Shown here: piece after piece, positions 24,366-31,943 of the stretch
How the letters are laid out: the number at the start of each line of letters is the position of its first letter
Numbering within the stretch: position 1 is the first letter of the stretch
IMG/VR virus record: IMGVR_UViG_3300047160_007578
Coordinates: 1-64,000 of that record
Strand: one strand, 5' to 3'
Length of the DNA: 64,000 nt
Source: a virus
Notes under the pieces: generated by a model
The model's input: only the letters and a program-made list of their open reading frames with translations
Told to the model about the DNA's origin: nothing
The model's database searches: none
Made by a program: the position numbers and the translations under genes

Positions 24366-24599
24366 TCACTTGCCGCGGCGCTTCTTGCTGAAAGCGCTGC
24401 CGCGCTTGTTCATCTTGCGCCGTTCCTGAGGCGCGCGGTTTGCGGGAAGCGTGGTATCGCGTTCGGCGTGAATCGTAGGCGTTGATCCCGCCTTTTTCAC
24501 TTTGCCTAGCGCGAGTTCCATCTCTTCAATCCAATCCAGCTTAAACAGGCGCTTCCTGTTTCCGCTAGCGATGACGATTTGTCCGCGTCGCGTTCGCAT
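24366..24599 (-). CDS. Basic hypothetical module gene
   Basis: RBS and promoter; stop abuts the repeat flank. Confidence 0.65.
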   Translation of the reverse strand: MRTRRGQIVIASGNRKRLFKLDWIEEMELALGKVKKAGSTPTIHAERDTTLPANRAPQERRKMNKRGSAFSKKRRGK

Positions 24600-24777
24600 T
24601 GTCTTTCCCTCTCAGGTTGTTGGTTGCGTCTCAACTACATTCCAATATACAACACGATTGCGAGCATGTCAAACGGATTTCAAGAAAAGATTTTTAGTCA
24701 TTTTCGTTTGACATGCTCGCGATTGTATTGTATGATTGTGCAGAGTTAAACAACGACACCCAAACAAGGGGAATCAA

Positions 24778-25125
24778 ATGGAAAGCAATGCGGTGAGTTC
24801 ACTAGGCTACCACTTTGTGGCGCAACCTGAAAGCGCACAAGTGGAATGCACAACGCGTATCGGCAAGCGCGACGCCAAACCGCGACCGCAATCGCCGGCG
24901 CGCTTACACTTCAATGGAAAATTGAAGCGTCGCGAGCGACGCGCACACAACGCGCATCCGCGCCGGTTAACCGATGATGCGCTGTTTTCGCTCGTTGCAA
25001 GCGCGTTCGCCCTACTCGGACGCCACGCGCGTCCAGGTGAGACGTTCCGCGCTTGTCGCGCCGCGAAAGGCGCGAAGGATGCCGCCGATGCCGTCAAGCG
25101 CATCATCGATGAAATCAACCGATAG
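24778..25125 (+). CDS. Basic hypothetical module gene
   Basis: RBS, promoter and conserved leader. Confidence 0.6.
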   Translation: MESNAVSSLGYHFVAQPESAQVECTTRIGKRDAKPRPQSPARLHFNGKLKRRERRAHNAHPRRLTDDALFSLVASAFALLGRHARPGETFRACRAAKGAKDAADAVKRIIDEINR

Positions 25126-25254
25126 GATAAGCGCCAGAGCCACGGACGGCTCTTTGGCGCTCACCAAATCGTTCCAACGTAGTTAAGCTACAGCGGAATT
25201 TTTTGCGTCGATTAGGGAGCCAACCAGGGCATCCTGCCCCTGGTGGACGAGTGT

Positions 25255-26149: not shown

Positions 26150-26520
26150 TTATTTCCTATCGCAAATGTAGGAATTTAGCGCCGCCTAACTATTTGCCAC
26201 AAAAAAGATCTTTAATCTCTCAATGCCGATTTGCCACAAAAAAAAGATCGCAATTATCCGCAATCGGAATTTGCCACAATTCCTATCTCAATTGTATTGC
26301 ACAATCGCGATTTGCTACAATCGTGATCTTTAATCAATCTTTATCTCAAATATTTGCTACAAAAACGGTCGCAATTGTATTGCACAATTCCTATTTGCTA
26401 CAAAAGAGATAGAAATTAATCAAATCTTTTTGAGATATTCCTACTATTTCTATCTCAATTGTAGCGAACATTTGAGATAAAGAGAGTATCTTTATATTTC
26501 TACTATTTAGGTCTTTAATC
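26150..26520. repeat. AT-rich non-coding region with short degenerate repeats
   Basis: ATTTGCYACAA x5, CAATTGTATTGCACAAT x2, several TTYCTAY. Confidence 0.75.
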
Positions 26521-26539: not shown

Positions 26540-26897
26540 TTGACAATGCCGCGTAGTATGCTATGATAGTATCGTGGAGTATGCGCCGATTGGTTTGGCG
26601 CGGGCCGGAAAAGATTTGATTAATTCCGGTTTGGCACGGGAATTGCTGGCGAATTCTGATTAAAAATCGCTGGACATACGAGCGCTGGACAAAGGAACAG
26701 TAAAAAGAAATCCAAAATTCGGTTTGACAATCGGCCAGAGTGAGCTAGAGTCTATTAGAGTGAGATTGACGCAACGACACGACAAAATGAAAGGGGATTT
26801 TGAGGCGCGCGGAATTAAACTTGCACTATCCGCGCGGCCGAAAAAACCGGAACAAAAAAACGAAAAAATTTGACTTTCCGGTTTTTCGTGCTATACT
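26540..26897 (+). promoter_or_regulatory. Three tandem sigma70-like promoters
   Basis: TTGACA-16-TATGAT (26540-26567), TTGACA..TAGAGT (from 26724), TTGACT-16-TATACT (26870-26897); the first and third have an extended TGn. Confidence 0.75.
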
Positions 26898-26903
26898 GGA
26901 GTG

Positions 26904-27800
26904 TAAGGTTAAGTGAGCGAGTGGTTGCTTGACTCGCGCGGTTCGATTCCGCGGCGCTCAAATCGGTTTAGGCACTTCGCCTAGACTGCAACGCTACCAT
27001 TGGAGGAAAAAGCCACAACCGAAACGGCGCACGTGAGGCTAATCCCCTGACACGGGCGCAATATACATAGCGGTGGGACCGCTACGGTGAATCATTGTAC
27101 ATCATAGGCGTCGCGCCTATCGGTTCGATCAATGATCTTTCCGCGTCCATTCATCCCGATGCCGCAAGGCTAGACGGTACGTCAAGAGGCAAGCGCCCAG
27201 CTTGCTAGACGCTAGTGCCGTGGTGATTGGACAAAGACTGATTAAAGATCGGGCACGGTGCGTCAAGTATGCTCTGTATGCAACGACACTATGCGAATTG
27301 CCGAAAGTAGACGGCTAACGGGTCACAGTTGCCCGGTTCAAGAATCCCCAGCTAACGTAGAGACGAGCTGGCGTCCAATCCTGTAAGGGGTGGTCACAAA
27401 CCATCCACGGGTAAACGGCAAGTTTGATCTTTGATCAAAGTTGCCCGAAAACCGCAGAGATTGCAGGACAGACGAAAAAGAACCACCATAAGACAGGCTA
27501 CCGCCCAACTATGATCGTGGAAGCGGCCCAAAAACCGCTGATCCGTGTGAGTAGGGTAGCTTAACATTTCTTATGGTGACTGTGCGGCGCTTCGGAATGA
27601 GCACCTGACCTTTCTTTCCCGTAAGGGAAATTCGTCAGATTCCATCCGGGTCGTGTAAATATCCGTTCCGTGTGGAATGGAACACGATTTGGAAAATCAC
27701 GTTTGCCTTTCGTCCCCGCCCTATGCCAACCGTTGACAGCTACAACGATTTTTAATCGTCTCGCTGTGCAACGGTGGCAAGGGCCGGAACGTGGCAGAAA
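26904..27800 (+). ncRNA. Large structured non-coding RNA / leader, family unassigned
   Basis: No credible ORF; strong promoters upstream; many stems incl. GNRA hairpins; long-range CACCATAAGA/TCTTATGGTG and GCTACC/GGTAGC pairings; tRNA-like T-arm at the 5' end. Confidence 0.75.
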
Positions 27801-27812
27801 GATAGGTGACTC

Positions 27813-29201
27813 ATGTCCAGAGTGCTCGCAATCGTCCTCAACTTCGCTCAAATCGCTTGGGTTTCGGCGGTCAACTACCGTCGGGACTACGGCGACACTG
27901 ACCGACTGCGGGCCAGTTTGACCGATCGTGATTGGGTTCAGGACAACGTGGTTCAGGCGTTTCCGCTCGACAACGCGGCGGCGCTCGGCTACGACGTTCC
28001 GACCATGATCGCGGCCGAACTGGACCTGCGGCAGAAGTTGTGGGACACGCTGAAAGCCGATCAGTCCAAGGAAGGACTCGTGAAGCTGAAGGTGTTCGAG
28101 AAGCTCTATACCGTCAACGGTGACGGCAAGCGGCTGATCGAACCAAACCACTTCGGCAACAGCGGCTTCCGGCGCCACTCGGTCTACTTCGCCGCAATGG
28201 TTGACCGCTGGAACCTCCGCGAGAAGCCCGAATACGCGGGCTACGAAATCTCGGGTCACGTTCCAGTCCGGGTCATGACCTACGCGACGAAGGCCGATCA
28301 AATCTTCGAGCAACAGCTTGAGAACGCCATGCAGAACGTCGGCACGAAGCAGATGGAGGACTTGGAAAAGCTCCGAGTCACTCACGATCTGTTCCAGGCC
28401 GGCGCGAAGCAGGTCAAGATTCGGCATCTGTACCCCGGTTCGACCGGCCAGAAGCTGTTCTCGATCTGTCTGGCCGATCTCAACTGGCCTGCGTTGAAGA
28501 TTTATGATCGTTTCCACTTGCCCGAATCGCATCCCGATCGGATCAAGTGGGGTCCGGTGCGTCAACAGGACGTGACGAAGTTCAACAACAGGTTCGATGC
28601 CGTCCGCAAGGAGAAGGACGGCCTGCCGCTCACTCCCGCGGAGCAGAAGGAATTGCTGCCACCGATCACCCTGGATGACCTCCAGATCGCGGTGGACAAC
28701 TACTTCCGCGACGCTTCCCGCGGCAAAGAGGACGATTCCGCCAAGATGATGAAGAAGGGCGACATTGCATCGCTCGCTCGCGTCCACCGCTGCTCTATCG
28801 TCCGTCGGGCGATGGACTCGGTACTCGGCGACGTGCAGACGAACTTGCAGAAGTTCGTCAGCAACCCCGACTGCATCAACTTGGCCACGGAACTGTATGA
28901 TCTTGGCGGTCAGGACGCCGGCAAGACCATCCTCACTCCGCTGATCAATGATCAGACCGAAACCACCCCGGAGGGCAAACAGGTCGCCAAGCGCGTTTTC
29001 AACGACAAGGCGGCTCTCGCGCTCGTCGGTGCGGCTACCCTGCTGATCAAGGGTCAGGGCGACGCCTTGCTCAAGGCGATCGACCTCATCAACAACCCGC
29101 CGCCCCCGCCCGCTCCGGTGGAGGAAAAGCCCGCTGCCACTCCCCCGACCGCTCCGGCCAACGGCGGCAAGAAGCAGCAGACCGGCGGCAAGCGCAGCTG
29201 A
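27813..29201 (+). CDS. ParB/Srx-like N-terminal domain protein with Pro/Lys-rich tail
   Basis: NYRRDYGD..L.ASL, SGFRR (GxRR), VPVRV and EN...MEDLEK follow ParB box I/II order; strong C/G third-position codon bias. Confidence 0.6.
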   Translation: MSRVLAIVLNFAQIAWVSAVNYRRDYGDTDRLRASLTDRDWVQDNVVQAFPLDNAAALGYDVPTMIAAELDLRQKLWDTLKADQSKEGLVKLKVFEKLYTVNGDGKRLIEPNHFGNSGFRRHSVYFAAMVDRWNLREKPEYAGYEISGHVPVRVMTYATKADQIFEQQLENAMQNVGTKQMEDLEKLRVTHDLFQAGAKQVKIRHLYPGSTGQKLFSICLADLNWPALKIYDRFHLPESHPDRIKWGPVRQQDVTKFNNRFDAVRKEKDGLPLTPAEQKELLPPITLDDLQIAVDNYFRDASRGKEDDSAKMMKKGDIASLARVHRCSIVRRAMDSVLGDVQTNLQKFVSNPDCINLATELYDLGGQDAGKTILTPLINDQTETTPEGKQVAKRVFNDKAALALVGAATLLIKGQGDALLKAIDLINNPPPPPAPVEEKPAATPPTAPANGGKKQQTGGKRS

Positions 29202-29363
29202 ATCCGTCGGTTTAGCACCGCTTCCGGTGACTTTGCCCTAATGGGCTATTAACAAATCCGGTCAGGTGCTCATTCCCAAGTACCGCACAGTACAAATCAA
29301 AAGGAATGATTTTTAATCATTCTTTTCCGAAGCGCCGCACGGTTGACAGAAAGGTAGGTGAAC

Positions 29364-29651
29364 ATGGCTTTCATCAAGGCACGCAATGTCACCCGAATCG
29401 GCAACAGCGATGTTTTTGAAGTCGAGCTAATCGACGAAGGGACTCCGCTGACCACCGAAGAAATGGAAATCTTCGAGCGCCGATTCCCGAACACGCGGAA
29501 CCGCGTCGAGCAAGCGCTTGAAGTCGAGCGCGTGCTTAGCACGATTCCAACCGAAACGGAAATCATCACCGCACAGCGCAACAACGGCAAGAAACGTGGG
29601 AACGCTCACATGCCAACCGCGATTCCGCCCGCCACGCCGCCCAAGTATTGA
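29364..29651 (+). CDS. Hypothetical protein
   Basis: GAAAGGTAGGTG RBS. Confidence 0.75.
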   Translation: MAFIKARNVTRIGNSDVFEVELIDEGTPLTTEEMEIFERRFPNTRNRVEQALEVERVLSTIPTETEIITAQRNNGKKRGNAHMPTAIPPATPPKY

Positions 29652-29757
29652 CACTTCCCAACGATCTTTAATCTTGTCTCCAAACCCGTCAACCGTGGTG
29701 CTTCCGATGCGCCGCACAGTGCAGCGTATCTATCTTTTCGCGAAAGGTAGGTGCTAC

Positions 29758-30075
29758 GTGTTTCATTTCACCGCGGTCATGGAGGACAATGTCCTGATCG
29801 CAACCGATGTTGGTCATGCCCTATCGGCTGAAGAAATTCTCAAACTTCACGAATCGGGCACGCCAGCGCCACCGAATCTGTCCGTGGTCGGCAGCGACAA
29901 CTTCACCGGCAAGACCGGAACCGCGAAGTGGACGCCGCAACAGCTTTGCGCTGTGATCGCTCTCGCGTTCGGTGCCGGCGAAGAAAAATGGCTGGGCTAC
30001 GACGTGGACGCGCTCTACGCAACCGCGGAACCCCTGTTCAAGGATTGGCCCGCCGAGTGTCGGCCGATTCCCTGA
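29758..30075 (+). CDS. Hypothetical protein (GTG start)
   Basis: GAAAGGTAGGTG RBS. Confidence 0.7.
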   Translation: MFHFTAVMEDNVLIATDVGHALSAEEILKLHESGTPAPPNLSVVGSDNFTGKTGTAKWTPQQLCAVIALAFGAGEEKWLGYDVDALYATAEPLFKDWPAECRPIP

Positions 30076-30247
30076 ACCCCAACCGCTCTGATTAAAAATC
30101 AGAGCGGTCCGAAGCGCCGCCCGGAATTGACACGTAAAACAGAAAGGAGCGTGTCAAATGTTCCGTCCCTGAAAAGGGACTCAGCGCACCCGATTGATTA
30201 AAAATCTTTCGGGTCCGCCCGAAGCGCCGTGCAGAAAGGAGGATGCC

Positions 30248-30568
30248 ATGCCGAATTTCCTCGTGATCATCACGAAAAACGACGGCAAGCAAAAAGACCC
30301 AAAGACCAAAAAATGGGTCGATGTTGTTCCAGAGCAAACGCCAGTCCGATTGTGCAATTGGATTGCCGAAAAGCTCCGGCTCAATATCAACTTCTACGGT
30401 TCCGTTGCAGTGCATGTTCTGCCGACTGCCAAAGACACGGCGGATAAGCTCATCGCCGCACTGGAATCCGTGCCGGACGTTCACTTGCCACTTTCCCGAC
30501 GTGAAGCAATCACCACCGCTATCATGTCCGTGCTCATCCCGCCCGCACACACGCAAGGGCGAAGATAG
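30248..30568 (+). CDS. Hypothetical protein
   Basis: AAGGAGG RBS. Confidence 0.75.
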   Translation: MPNFLVIITKNDGKQKDPKTKKWVDVVPEQTPVRLCNWIAEKLRLNINFYGSVAVHVLPTAKDTADKLIAALESVPDVHLPLSRREAITTAIMSVLIPPAHTQGRR

Positions 30569-30632
30569 CCTGATCATTAATCGCATGGCGCTTCCGAATC
30601 GCCGCACAGTAAACCAACCGAAAGGAGATACC

Positions 30633-31007
30633 ATGCCTGATCGACCAAAGCGGGTTTGGTGTCAGGACGATGGACATTACAACCATCTTCCAACGCCAAA
30701 CGAACCCGTTCCAATTGGCGAATTCTGGTACTGGCTGTTCCAAGCCAGTTTCACCGTGGAAGTTCGCCAAGTGGAAAAGTTCCGCTACAACAAAGTGCTG
30801 ATCTTTTGGGCAGAGAATTCCGCTTACGCGCTGATCCAGCCGGACAAGTGGAAAAGCTCCCCAAAGCTGCACTATCCGAACATGCCCACCGCACTTCGCA
30901 TCGGTTGCCGACACGAATACCATGTCGAACGGCAACCGTTACCGTGTTACAAGGAAGTCAAATGCGCCAAGTGCGGGCACGAAAAGGTGATCGACAGTTC
31001 GGATTGA
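30633..31007 (+). CDS. Hypothetical protein with C-terminal zinc ribbon
   Basis: GCRHEY...CAKCG...DSSD; AAGGAG RBS. Confidence 0.75.
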   Translation: MPDRPKRVWCQDDGHYNHLPTPNEPVPIGEFWYWLFQASFTVEVRQVEKFRYNKVLIFWAENSAYALIQPDKWKSSPKLHYPNMPTALRIGCRHEYHVERQPLPCYKEVKCAKCGHEKVIDSSD

Positions 31008-31080
31008 AACCCAACCGGATTGATTAAAAATCAATTCGGTCCGAAGCGCCGCACAATTGGCTTGGGAAAGAGAGGTTCCA

Positions 31081-31284
31081 ATGGCTCAAAGGAATTGTGC
31101 CGTGTGCGGTGCTGAACTTACTCCGTTCCGAACGGATACACTCACCGCTCACGAATTCGATTGCTACCAAAAGCATCCCGAACTCATCCCCGATGAACAC
31201 CGCGAACAATTCGAGAAAACGCTCGCATGGAAGCAACGCAGCGACGCCGCAAAACGTGCGGCAAAGAAGCGCCGCAAGTCCTGA
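31081..31284 (+). CDS. Small zinc-finger-like protein
   Basis: CAVC...H..C; basic tail; RBS. Confidence 0.7.
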   Translation: MAQRNCAVCGAELTPFRTDTLTAHEFDCYQKHPELIPDEHREQFEKTLAWKQRSDAAKRAAKKRRKS

Positions 31285-31350
31285 TCATTAATCAAGCCAG
31301 TTGTGCAGCTTCCGAAGCGCCGCACGGTGACTTGGGAAAGAGAGGTTCCC

Positions 31351-31584
31351 ATGCACTATTGGTGCCAGTTCATCGACGACAGCAAAGGCACGATCAACGC
31401 AGACAGCATCGAGCAACTGCACGAAGTCGCTGCCAAGCTGAAAAAGCCCATCAAGCATTGGTGGCCGCTTCCGTATCCCGCCAGTCCGCAACTGAACCCC
31501 GGCAATTGTCCGCCGTTCTGCTTCACGCCGGAAAGGTGCAAAGGGCACAGTTCGTGCCCACGCAACTACGCTTGTTCCGAGTGA
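31351..31584 (+). CDS. Small Cys-rich protein
   Basis: CPPFC..C..SCPRNYAC; RBS. Confidence 0.7.
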   Translation: MHYWCQFIDDSKGTINADSIEQLHEVAAKLKKPIKHWWPLPYPASPQLNPGNCPPFCFTPERCKGHSSCPRNYACSE

Positions 31585-31640
31585 TCATTAATCAAGTCAC
31601 CGTGTCGCTTCCGAAGCGCCGTGCAGGAAGGAGCGTGCCT

Positions 31641-31844
31641 ATGCTCAATCCAGACATCAACAAATTGCACCAACTCGACAAGTTGTATCTCGAAATAAAA
31701 CGGTTGGCTGAAAAGATCAACGACGTGTATCGAGCATACAACAGTCCCGGTCTATGCAACATTGAAGCTTGCGAACAACAACTCGCGACCGTCGCGAATC
31801 AACTCGAAAGCCTTACCCCGCTCTTACGAGCGTGGAAGGGCTAA
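31641..31844 (+). CDS. Small helical hypothetical protein
   Basis: AAGGAG RBS. Confidence 0.65.
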   Translation: MLNPDINKLHQLDKLYLEIKRLAEKINDVYRAYNSPGLCNIEACEQQLATVANQLESLTPLLRAWKG

Positions 31845-31943
31845 AACGATCTTTAATCAAAGCACGTCGCTTCCGAAACGCCGCACAGTGCGAGTGAGTA
31901 TCACACTCAATCACCCCGCAAGGGGAGAAAGGTAGGTGCTCAC

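Follow-up and report, generated by a model that had tools for sequence, protein, structure and literature searches.

A probable composite leader of a phage's first early operon, with a tRNA-like 5' element and a gene-flanking stem

The region from 26904 to 27812 of the sequence analysed here, hereafter called the window (64,000 nucleotides, positions 1 to 64,000 of the IMG/VR virus record IMGVR_UViG_3300047160_007578), is probably the long, structured, non-coding leader of the first early operon of this phage, carrying a processing stem and a translational switch. It is best read as a composite leader, which would consist of four modules: a tRNA-like minihelix, a fast-evolving middle, a conserved core (27296-27578) and the switch (Table 1). 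A sequence-only reading had taken the region for a large structured RNA. This holds in that it is non-coding, lies behind three sigma-70-like promoters and contains structure conserved by covariation, but not for the 3' ~230 nt (27579-27812), which are not free-standing and serve the downstream gene as 5' UTR and control region. The direct observations are sequences, conservation, covariation and predicted alternative pairings, from which we infer that the region is transcribed, is cut by RNase P and RNase III, and affects translation.

Table 1 Features of the leader and its surroundings in the window (p, pair probability in the pair-probability fold)
Feature	Position	Strand	Remarks
Promoter-like site P1	26540..26567	+	TTGACA, 16 nt, TATGAT, with TG; 11/12 matches
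Promoter-like site P2	26724..26751	+	TTGACA, 16 nt, TAGAGT; 10/12 matches
Promoter-like site P3	26870..26897	+	TTGACT, 16 nt, TATACT, with TG; 10/12 matches
tRNA-like minihelix	26914..26960	+	~10 nt past predicted P3 start
10-bp hairpin	26964..26988	+	p 0.99; two G.U pairs on + strand
Variable middle	26989..27295	+	local hairpins 27068-84 and 27104-20; domain 27145-27232
Stem	27068-74/27078-84		p 0.79
Stem	27104-10/27114-20		p 0.94
GCC-GCAA-GGC stem	27161-70		p 0.99
Conserved core, part A	27296..27483	+	words shared collinearly with L003
Core hairpin with AAAGUAGA loop	27300-15	+	
Core hairpin	27319-35	+	
Core single-stranded UCAAGAAU	27337-45	+	
Core hairpin	27348-71	+	
Core branched domain	27372-27474	+	
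Core AAAAGAAC	27476-83	+	
Domain D3	27484..27578	+	closed by 10-bp stem ending one base before 5' arm
Stem	27484-93/27569-78		p 0.86; encloses 27496-502/27555-61, p 0.81
5' arm region	27579..27614	+	gene-flanking stem arm, 27579-27610
5' UTR hairpins	27615..27796	+	GUAA-loop 27616-29; 27638-98; long hairpin 27704-96
Stem	27616-20/27625-29		p 0.96
Long hairpin	27718-27784		p 0.93-1.0
Ribosome site (27797-27808) and first operon gene P0001	27797..29201	+	462 aa
3' arm	29260..29291	+	59 nt past stop codon of first gene
Ten CGAAGCGCCGCACAG-like motif copies	29276..31888	+	complementary to first 15-19 nt of 5' arm

The region was compared with two distant relatives, the loci L003 and L004, and with soil strain variants; a further relative, L005, also has upstream DNA. 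A total of 24 soil runs were found, none of them listed as RNA. The strain-variant letters come from single contigs at a depth of 3-9 and cover 40 of the 224 differences and 12 of the 36 indels. Aligning the leaders with MAFFT gave nothing usable. Neither the DNA of the leader region nor P0001 has a match in GenBank phages, P0001 and its alignment found no relatives in IMG/VR contigs or in one genome per prokaryote species, and the composite DNA pattern had no match in genome contigs. The 71 IMG/VR loci sharing a 15-mer were set aside as chance matches, having neither a P0001 relative nor the composite motif (one gave a weak model match, E 0.4), and three loci retrieved with a two-part motif were rejected for lack of a P0001 relative and of the palindrome density. 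A junction of 29327 to 26430, seen in two runs, is most simply a repeat-array variant resembling 29307-29327 by chance, and the alternative of a rearrangement was dropped.

The stretch is gene-free, as had been proposed: the longest open reading frame lying fully within 26904-27800 has at most 57 amino acids (27394-27567, minus strand), and it has no counterpart in L003. The three tandem promoters postulated earlier were likewise found upstream, as sigma-70-like sites on the plus strand with 10-11 of 12 matches; a promoter scan over 3 kb returned 7 sites against 3.2 ± 1.5 in shuffled sequences. The extended -10 TG is present in two of the three predicted promoters (P1 and P3), and P3 leads to a predicted transcription start near 26904. 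In strain variants the -35 of P3 is weakened to TTGCTT while its -10 reaches the consensus TATAAT, so that the two changes compensate each other. In L003 the tRNA-like element is preceded, at equal distance, by TTGCTT with an extended -10 (read by eye). The arrangement is that of tandem sigma-70 early promoters, with several -35/-10 pairs at 16-18-nt spacing facing one direction ahead of the first early gene, and host RNA polymerase would transcribe the leader rightwards from all three.

All stems named in the sequence-only reading were recovered in the pair-probability fold. The 909-nt stretch folds with z = -8.1 on both strands (20 shuffles). When 675-nt windows were compared (12 shuffles each), the target reached z = -4.7, a value matched or undercut by 4 of the 12 control windows taken elsewhere in this phage (-5.0, -5.1, -11.5 and, for the coding region next to it, -7.6), so that folding energy or stem density alone is not evidence, and folding energy was discarded as an argument. 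Sliding 150-nt windows gave only two strong local folding peaks (27350-27499 and 27650-27799). Hairpins with GNRA or UNCG tetraloops number 3, 2 and 1 on the plus strands of the three leaders, and 0, 1 and 0 on the minus strands, in favour of the plus strand. Four copies of a DNA palindrome that occurs 216 times genome-wide are found within the leader, so DNA-level sites are also present there.

The region had earlier been likened to the giant RNAs GOLLD and ROOL, large ornate RNAs that are described as often occurring in phages (PMC12286853), and it does resemble them in being several hundred nucleotides long, phage-borne and rich in hairpins. However, no Rfam family reached its gathering score in the 64-kb window or in L003-L005, and the comparison therefore fails. 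The cmscan check suggested at the time, run with E up to 10, gave six sub-threshold rows of 12-16 bits, the best with 15.9 bits against a cut-off of 38; apart from a 17-nt T-arm match to a cyanobacterial tmRNA, none of the six belongs to the large ornate RNAs, introns, RNase P or tmRNA. ARAGORN found no tRNA or tmRNA gene in the 64-kb window, a further point against the comparison. An ornate RNA of this size is also at odds with a middle third that has no detectable conservation in the relative, and with the three relatives having upstream DNA, of which L004 has a leader of just 262 nt without a tRNA-like element and L005 no leader but an ORF in its place; the first gene can therefore do without the long 5' part. 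Unlike GOLLD and ROOL, moreover, the leader is conserved in a tiny clade only, and its 3' part is a 5' UTR. No Ro60/TROVE was found in the phage. Size, phage setting, several GNRA loops and the tRNA-like piece would suit a divergent member of GOLLD, ROOL, OLE, raiA, HEARO or tmRNA, or a self-splicing intron, but given the search results we regard such a kinship as extremely improbable.

The tRNA-like minihelix consists of a 6-bp acceptor-like stem, a conserved A.G layer and a 5-bp T-stem with a T-loop of 7 nt (TTCGATT; TTCGAAT in the counterpart), and so shows the stack of 12 layers, acceptor-like stem on 5-bp T-stem, and the 7-nt TTCRANN loop that mark the minihelix type of RNase P substrate known from C4 RNA. 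Its variable middle, the 16 nt that separate the acceptor strand from the T-stem, contains a conserved UGG, and the minihelix has neither an anticodon arm nor CCA. The comparison of homologs that had been recommended revealed covariation in the minihelix, in domain D3 and in the arms (L003, L004 and strain variants), the comparative support for the minihelix and D3 coming from two sequences only, the window and L003. Set against positions 365-410 of L003, 11 of 11 pairs of the minihelix are standard in both sequences, 7 of them through changes on both sides; all 22 pair cells being standard was equalled in 8 of 500 shuffles, and sliding the partners by 1-3 columns left 40-56 % paired. The L003 element is in the matching place, directly behind a promoter, and the neighbouring protein is 37 % identical. 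In the strain variants both stems are unaltered among the differences listed, and one T-loop letter and at least 11 letters of the middle are altered. The model of the minihelix (R1) found no second copy within the 130-kb genome.

From these features we infer that the minihelix acts as a signal for processing or for stability; cleavage there by RNase P would leave a flush, base-paired 5' end. The mascRNA of MALAT1 is described as a tRNA-like module acting as processing signal for a long RNA (PMC8457004); unlike mascRNA, the piece found here is without D and anticodon arms and is located at the 5' rather than the 3' end. The orientation of the T-loop points to the plus strand as the putative RNA strand. 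The adjacent hairpin (26964-26988) preserves its 10 pairs in the strain variants through three double and two one-sided changes (paired by hand), and one variant has a G.U pair workable on the plus strand only.

The middle of the leader has no similarity to L003 (nhmmer, blastn; alignment z 0.3-0.8) and is ~84-90 % identical in the variant contigs. In the core, the pairing of the small hairpins, which were chosen after the alignment had been viewed, is maintained despite altered letters. One variant contig has only 4 differences within 27289-27375, and one has 19 differences in the 444 positions of 27283-27726 versus 58 in the 383 positions compared in the coding region next to it; recent recombination, instead of selection, could account for so little divergence in the core. 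Domain D3 occupies the matching position in L003, where its closing stem (1041-50/1139-48) is, as in the window, paired at 10 of 10 positions, 8 of them changed on both sides, and a stem like that of D3 ends at only 1.4 % of genome positions. In both loci D3 is flanked by identical AAAAGAAC and CUGUGCGGCGCUUCG, conserved single-stranded motifs.

This last core domain abuts the 5' arm of the proposed switch. A gene-flanking stem of 27-34 nt is present in all three loci, with different letters in L004. Complementarity of the arms is 91 % over 32 nt in the window and 85 % over 34 nt and 93 % over 30 nt in the other two, with scores of 23, 19 and 24 against shuffle maxima of 14 (300 shuffles), 10 and 11, and the mismatches are G.U-compatible to an equal degree on both strands. 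In its 3' half (27597-27614), the 5' arm is the complement of the next gene's ribosome site together with its start codon. When the leaders were folded alone, ribosome site and start codon were paired with the 5' arm in every one of the three loci, whereas in folds of the full transcripts 30 of 32, 30 of 34 and 22 of 27 arm positions paired with the 3' arm instead. No leader window pairs with the ribosome site as well as the 5' arm does in any of the three loci (0 of 73, 0 of 72 and 0 of 74 other windows), and shuffled arms equalled the real match 25, 36 and 52 times per 1000. In contigs of two runs, 27727-27824 is replaced by a diverged 107-nt stretch.

According to the proposed mechanism, the 5' arm would initially mask the first gene's start codon and ribosome site by pairing with them, and once the 3' arm has been synthesized, a stronger 32-bp duplex of the two arms would form and free the ribosome site. 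The duplex is of the kind found in RNase III stems (double-stranded RNA of some 20 bp upwards, almost uninterrupted, within one transcript) and should be long enough as a substrate for the host enzyme, whose cleavage would excise the mRNA of the first gene from the polycistronic transcript and release a leader of ~690 nt. No RNase III domain is encoded by the phage, so the host enzyme would be needed for cleavage of the arms.

Long stems that flank a functional RNA and are cut by RNase III are known from rRNA operons; unlike these, the stem described here encloses a protein-coding gene. In the hok mRNA of plasmid R1, pairing of the 5' end with the 3' end keeps the mRNA silent, and there, as predicted here, pairing across the reading frame governs the accessibility of the ribosome site. 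In hok, however, the 5'-3' pairing blocks translation until the 3' end is trimmed, whereas here it is predicted to have the opposite effect, freeing the ribosome site, and there is no toxin-antitoxin context. The early region of T7 has the promoters A1-A3 and an RNase III site before gene 0.3. In our reading, the layout found here is T7-like, in variant form, sharing tandem sigma-70-type promoters, a non-coding leader and a double-stranded RNA element before the first early gene. It differs in that the T7 sites are local hairpins, whereas here the duplex spans the whole 1.4-kb gene, in the leader of 675-1040 nt with a tRNA-like element at its start, and in one arm doubling as an anti-ribosome-site sequence. 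T7 transcripts are described as polycistronic and cut by E. coli RNase III (PMC6938266).

Inverted repeats of 27-34 bp around a single gene of 1.3-1.4 kb, present in 3 of 3 loci and co-varying as the ends of transposons do, could also be the terminal inverted repeats of a small mobile element, with P0001 as its transposase and the upstream region as flanking DNA. This is very unlikely. P0001 showed no transposase, integrase or nuclease family, and no family of any kind, in Pfam, PHROGs or a PDB sequence search; it has six relatives among 5.8 billion proteins and one copy in the genome, the placement behind early promoters is alike in the window, L003 and L004, no direct repeat was seen beside the arms (by eye), and the arm additionally matches the ribosome site and the operon motif. 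The transposase gene, several copies and target-site duplication of insertion sequences were accordingly not found. The AlphaFold model of P0001 was poor (pLDDT 57.6), and Foldseek returned weak rows only (E at least 0.18), with Spo0J, KorB and Noc among the rows at E of at least 1. A 'ParB-like' identity was left unconfirmed, the Foldseek rows being weak and the profile searches against PDB sequences and Pfam empty.

Matches to the motif complementary to the 5' arm (plus strand, up to three mismatches) number ten in 29276-31888 and two elsewhere in 130 kb (76350 and 93365). Nine of the ten precede a start codon and its ribosome site by 13-55 nt, and the tenth, at 29276, is inside the 3' arm. 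The duplexes of arm and motif have predicted energies of -36 to -45 kcal/mol. The first 15 nt of the arm are identical in the window and L003 while the remaining arm has diverged, and L003 has ~8 such complementary sites, whereas L004, which is without a long leader or tRNA-like element, has its own 3' arm only. All of these observations would be consistent with the leader being a riboregulator itself, that is, a stable RNA of ~690 nt and of a new class, with a flush tRNA-like 5' cap produced by RNase P, a conserved core and a 3' seed produced by RNase III. This seed, the 3'-terminal 15-19 nt of the RNA, would pair with about ten downstream intergenic motifs directly ahead of the ribosome sites of the downstream genes, for RNase III guidance or translation tuning. 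We consider this possible but unlikely, since the same motif letters in two distant phages would better suit a site read by a protein, be it a promoter, an operator or an RNA-binding site, half of the motif copies form a DNA palindrome, GCTTCCGAAGC (by eye), and the association of a long leader with many sites is one of two loci versus one.

The C4 antisense RNA is part of the leader of the very operon that it regulates, is complementary to sites downstream in the same transcript, and is set free by RNase P by virtue of tRNA-like features. The candidate described here is similarly embedded in a leader, has tRNA-like features and is complementary to sites further down the transcript. C4 has ~77 nt and one target region, whereas the candidate would have ~690 nt and ~10 candidate sites, carries its tRNA-like piece at the far 5' end and is known from its sequence alone. 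For phages P1 and P7, C4 is described as being processed by RNase P (PMC11143913).

Protein recognition of the motif could take the form of a promoter for a phage sigma factor, as the phage encodes a sigma-70-family protein and the ~18-nt motif is found ahead of almost all genes of one operon and is conserved between phages. Such a promoter in the inverted copy (27580-27594) would drive transcription leftwards and give an antisense RNA over the core that interferes with the early promoters, and the conserved features would be DNA sites or belong to a minus-strand RNA. A weak terminator-like site on the minus strand (27028-27012) and the equal fold energies of both strands agree with this, but it seems quite improbable to us. 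The T-loop is readable, and the hairpin 26964-88 has its G.U pairs, on the plus strand only, and both lie further left than the terminator postulated for the antisense RNA; the inverted copy is without the palindrome found ahead of nine of the ten direct copies; terminator-like sites are at chance level (7 versus 3.8 ± 1.8); and the complementarity of arm and ribosome site in 3 of 3 loci would be unaccounted for. A T7-type RNA polymerase was not found in the phage, in a search whose control was likewise silent.

The leaders of early operons in phages set the speed and order in which takeover genes are expressed, and have been little explored beyond a few model phages. The composite leader would unite a tRNA-like 5' end, a near-invariant core and a gene-spanning stem with a second role as anti-ribosome-site switch, a set of three devices not known to have been described in combination. 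The gene-spanning stem is conserved by covariation in three distant soil phages, and the core appears almost unchanged in strains whose neighbouring gene differs by ~15 %. As the promoters are near the sigma-70 consensus, all parts can be tested in E. coli. If the switch is true, transcripts would be translatable only once completed past the stop codon. There is a slimmer chance that the matured ~690-nt leader times or cuts the whole operon, as a self-targeting antisense or RNase III guide RNA, and an additional action of the leader on the ten downstream sites, if real, would make it a one-to-many phage riboregulator of a new kind.

The 909-nt region at 26904-27812, which lies ahead of the gene for the 462-amino-acid protein P0001, appears on balance to be the cis-acting leader of an early operon, a reading drawn from sequence comparison. 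The IMG/VR virus record is 130,262 bp long (completeness estimate 88%), the window being its first 64 kb. Tail proteins, the portal and the large terminase are encoded on the minus strand of the window, and the region is located in a divergent stretch, with leftward genes up to about 24 kb and rightward genes from 27813. P0001 matched no family in Pfam or PHROG and has only six relatives among 5.8 billion proteins. Three loci (L003, L004 and L005) encoding a P0001-like protein with 34-37% identity came from scanning metagenome contigs. Only two long-leader loci are known in this very small clade. No overall alignable sequence was found when the leaders were compared across loci; their 3' halves share words in collinear order. 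DNA nearly identical or 80-95% similar to the window (strain variants) is present in contigs of four soil-metagenome runs, which were drawn from 24 rows of 17 studies that a word search had retrieved.

The sequence-only reading had described a large structured RNA, lacking a credible ORF and driven by three tandem promoters, that might be a divergent relative of GOLLD or ROOL or a new class. Its description was accurate: the longest ORF inside 26904-27800 is at most 57 amino acids, is on the minus strand and has no counterpart in L003, all listed stems were recovered (pair probability 0.79-1.0), and sigma-70-like sites at 26540, 26724 and 26870 face the region. The comparison with GOLLD and ROOL was unsupported, as neither the window as a whole nor the three related loci had an Rfam match that reached gathering score, and a permissive search of the region gave six rows of 12-16 bits, each far under its cut-off. 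The ARAGORN scan of the window was negative for tRNA and tmRNA. The 909-nt fold had z = -8.1 on both strands. Among 675-nt windows the target had z = -4.7, a value equalled or undercut by 4 of the 12 control windows taken from this genome, so folding energy does not discriminate and the claim of a functional RNA must rest on comparison. Two controls that folded better than the target, 27900-28574 in the neighbouring P0001 coding region (z -7.6) and 24500-25174 within an array of small promoter-bearing genes (z -11.5), lie far below shuffles, further than the leader itself does.

Coordinates of features in the window and the related loci
Feature	Locus	Position	Remark
Minihelix	window	26914-26960	~8-10 nt past promoter-predicted start
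Minihelix	L003	365-410	~8-10 nt past promoter-predicted start
D3 closing stem	window	27484-93/27569-78	10 bp; 95-nt domain, ends one base before 5' arm
D3 counterpart	L003	1041-50/1139-48	10-bp stem, exactly same place
5' arm; 3' arm	window	27579-27610; 29260-29291	
5' arm; 3' arm	L003	1149-1182; 2656-2689	
5' arm; 3' arm	L004	4620-4646; 6119-6145	
Leader	L003		~950 ORF-free bases upstream of gene
Leader	L004		tandem promoters; only ~262 nt
Leader	L005		different ORF upstream of gene
GATTAWTAATC (examples)	window	25574, 26658, 27127, 27240, 27426, 27747, 29308, 30090	

The stretches (arms) before and after the P0001-type gene are complementary in the window, L003 and L004, with ungapped scores of 23, 19 and 24 compared with shuffle maxima of 14, 10 and 11 (300 shuffles each); the arm letters of L004 are quite different from those of the other loci. 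In leader-only folds of all three, the ribosome site and start codon are duplexed with the 3' half of the 5' arm, and when folds were extended through the 3' arm, 30/32, 30/34 and 22/27 arm positions, respectively, shifted to an arm-arm duplex. No other leader window pairs with the ribosome site as well as the arm does (0/73, 0/72 and 0/74), and shuffled arms matched its pairing in 25, 36 and 52 of 1000 trials. These predicted alternative pairings are read as a translational switch, in which translation of the first gene would be blocked until the RNA extends beyond its stop codon. The 27-34-bp arm-arm duplex would naturally suit host RNase III as a substrate; the phage genome was found to encode no such enzyme. 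The polycistronic RNAs of the T7 early region are cut by RNase III, according to PMC6938266, and the layout here is similar in its predicted RNase III-type stem in an early operon, but here the stem encloses an entire gene.

The reverse complement of CGAAGCGCCGCACAG makes up the first 15 nt of the 5' arm; of the motif itself, ten plus-strand copies (at most 3 mismatches) occur in 29276-31888 and two more, weak, elsewhere in the 130 kb. Nine of the ten are preceded by a palindrome and followed by a start codon 13-55 nt later, with a ribosome site and a short gene; the tenth is inside the 3' arm. The set is an operon-specific module. Arm-motif duplexes were predicted at -36 to -45 kcal/mol. The identical 15-mer is present in the L003 arm, and L003 has about eight motif sites, whereas L004 is without motif sites, long leader or minihelix, and this co-occurrence (two loci versus one) keeps alive an antisense role, in which the processed leader would be a self-standing riboregulator acting in trans or cis on the motif sites. 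The C4 RNA of P1/P7, which is excised from the leader of the operon it belongs to, is comparable with this candidate antisense RNA. C4 RNA is processed by RNase P, according to PMC11143913. The riboregulator is nevertheless unlikely: the motif reads the same in distant phages and often makes a DNA palindrome, features that suit a protein-recognised site, e.g. a promoter used by the phage sigma factor; the inverted copy might then drive leftward transcription. Outside the window, a 262-amino-acid open frame on the minus strand of the genome record (74025-74222) matches sigma-70 region 2 at 29 bits, which exceeds the cut-off, and redirection of host RNA polymerase by the phage is probable. Readings other than the cis-acting leader and the riboregulator are each less probable than these two.

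Other repeats were seen in the DNA. The 11-bp palindrome GATTAWTAATC has 216 sites in 130 kb (about 1.5 expected), and many copies inspected stand directly before genes. Pairing does not continue into its flanks (mean 0.49 bp), which suggests a site in DNA, either bound by a dimeric protein or serving as a phage promoter element. L003 carries 9 copies within 5 kb; in L005, the most distant relative, a longer palindrome of the GATTGATTAAGATCAATC type stands before genes in its place (140-165, 565-615). Just upstream of the promoter-like site at 26540, the AT-rich stretch 26192-26520 contains seven repeats starting ATTTGCYACAA at ~41-nt spacing, which resemble iterons or operators, as in an origin, a partition site or an array for a repressor, and have rearranged units in strain variants.

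At the 5' end of the cis-acting leader, the tRNA-like minihelix of the window aligns with that of L003 with one gap. All 11 pairs (6-bp acceptor-like stem, 5-bp T-stem) are standard in both, 7 of them changed on both sides, and the pairing score was equalled by only 8 of 500 shuffles (slid partners pair 40-56%). The T-loop TTCGAWT, an A.G layer beneath the acceptor stem and UGG in the middle are kept. A two-sequence model found no further copy in the genome, L004-L005 or 74 unrelated loci, except one at E 0.4. A variant contig differs from the window at 31 positions and 10 indel letters across 239 nt, with the stems unchanged and one T-loop letter and 11 letters of the 16-nt middle altered. 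The hairpin 26964-26988 retains ten pairs in strain variants through three double and two one-sided changes, one variant having a G.U pair feasible only on the plus strand, and the promoter-like site at 26870 changes from TTGACT/TATACT to TTGCTT/TATAAT. Elsewhere in the genome record, the one tRNA reported by ARAGORN (minus strand 72513-72584, outside the window) is odd and of undetermined type, with a perfect T-arm at 72538, the sole tRNA-like gene besides the minihelix.

In the core (27296-27578), 8 of 10 pairs of the stem closing domain D3 are changed on both sides relative to L003, with AAAAGAAC preceding and CUGUGCGGCGCUUCG following in both; a stem of this kind ends at just 1.4% of genome positions. 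L004 has, by eye, A-rich AAAGAAAC, a 39-nt hairpin and then the arm. Further upstream both long leaders have, in the same order, a hairpin with AAAGUAG in an 8-nt loop, then a small hairpin, then UCAAGAAU as a single strand; the hairpins retain their pairing with different letters, a comparison of lower weight, being chosen after inspection. Over 27283-27726, one variant contig has 19 differing positions plus 4 gap letters relative to the window; in the coding sequence beyond, 58 of 383 positions of that contig differ. Contigs of two other runs have 4 differences in 27289-27375 and 15 differences plus 4 gap letters in 27585-27726. By these sums (contig depths 4-6), no difference would fall in 27376-27584, which comprises D3, AAAAGAAC and a branched domain, if all share one lineage, as their shared joints suggest. 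Recombination could explain the low core divergence. In contigs of two soil runs, 107 diverged letters replace 27727-27824 (last leader hairpin tip, ribosome site and first codons), and both flanks still align.

The promoters, T-loop, G.U pairs of the covarying hairpin and GNRA/UNCG tetraloop hairpins (6 on the plus versus 1 on the minus strand in three leaders) point to the plus strand; fold energies and arm mismatches did not discriminate between strands. The comparisons indicate that the finding is real and is RNA, and a composite early-operon leader describes the region better than a giant free-standing RNA would, the role of its 5' 690 nt being one that we infer. The leader presents a known layout in a new variant with three uncatalogued motifs: the minihelix at the 5' end, the D3-containing core and the switch that spans the gene.
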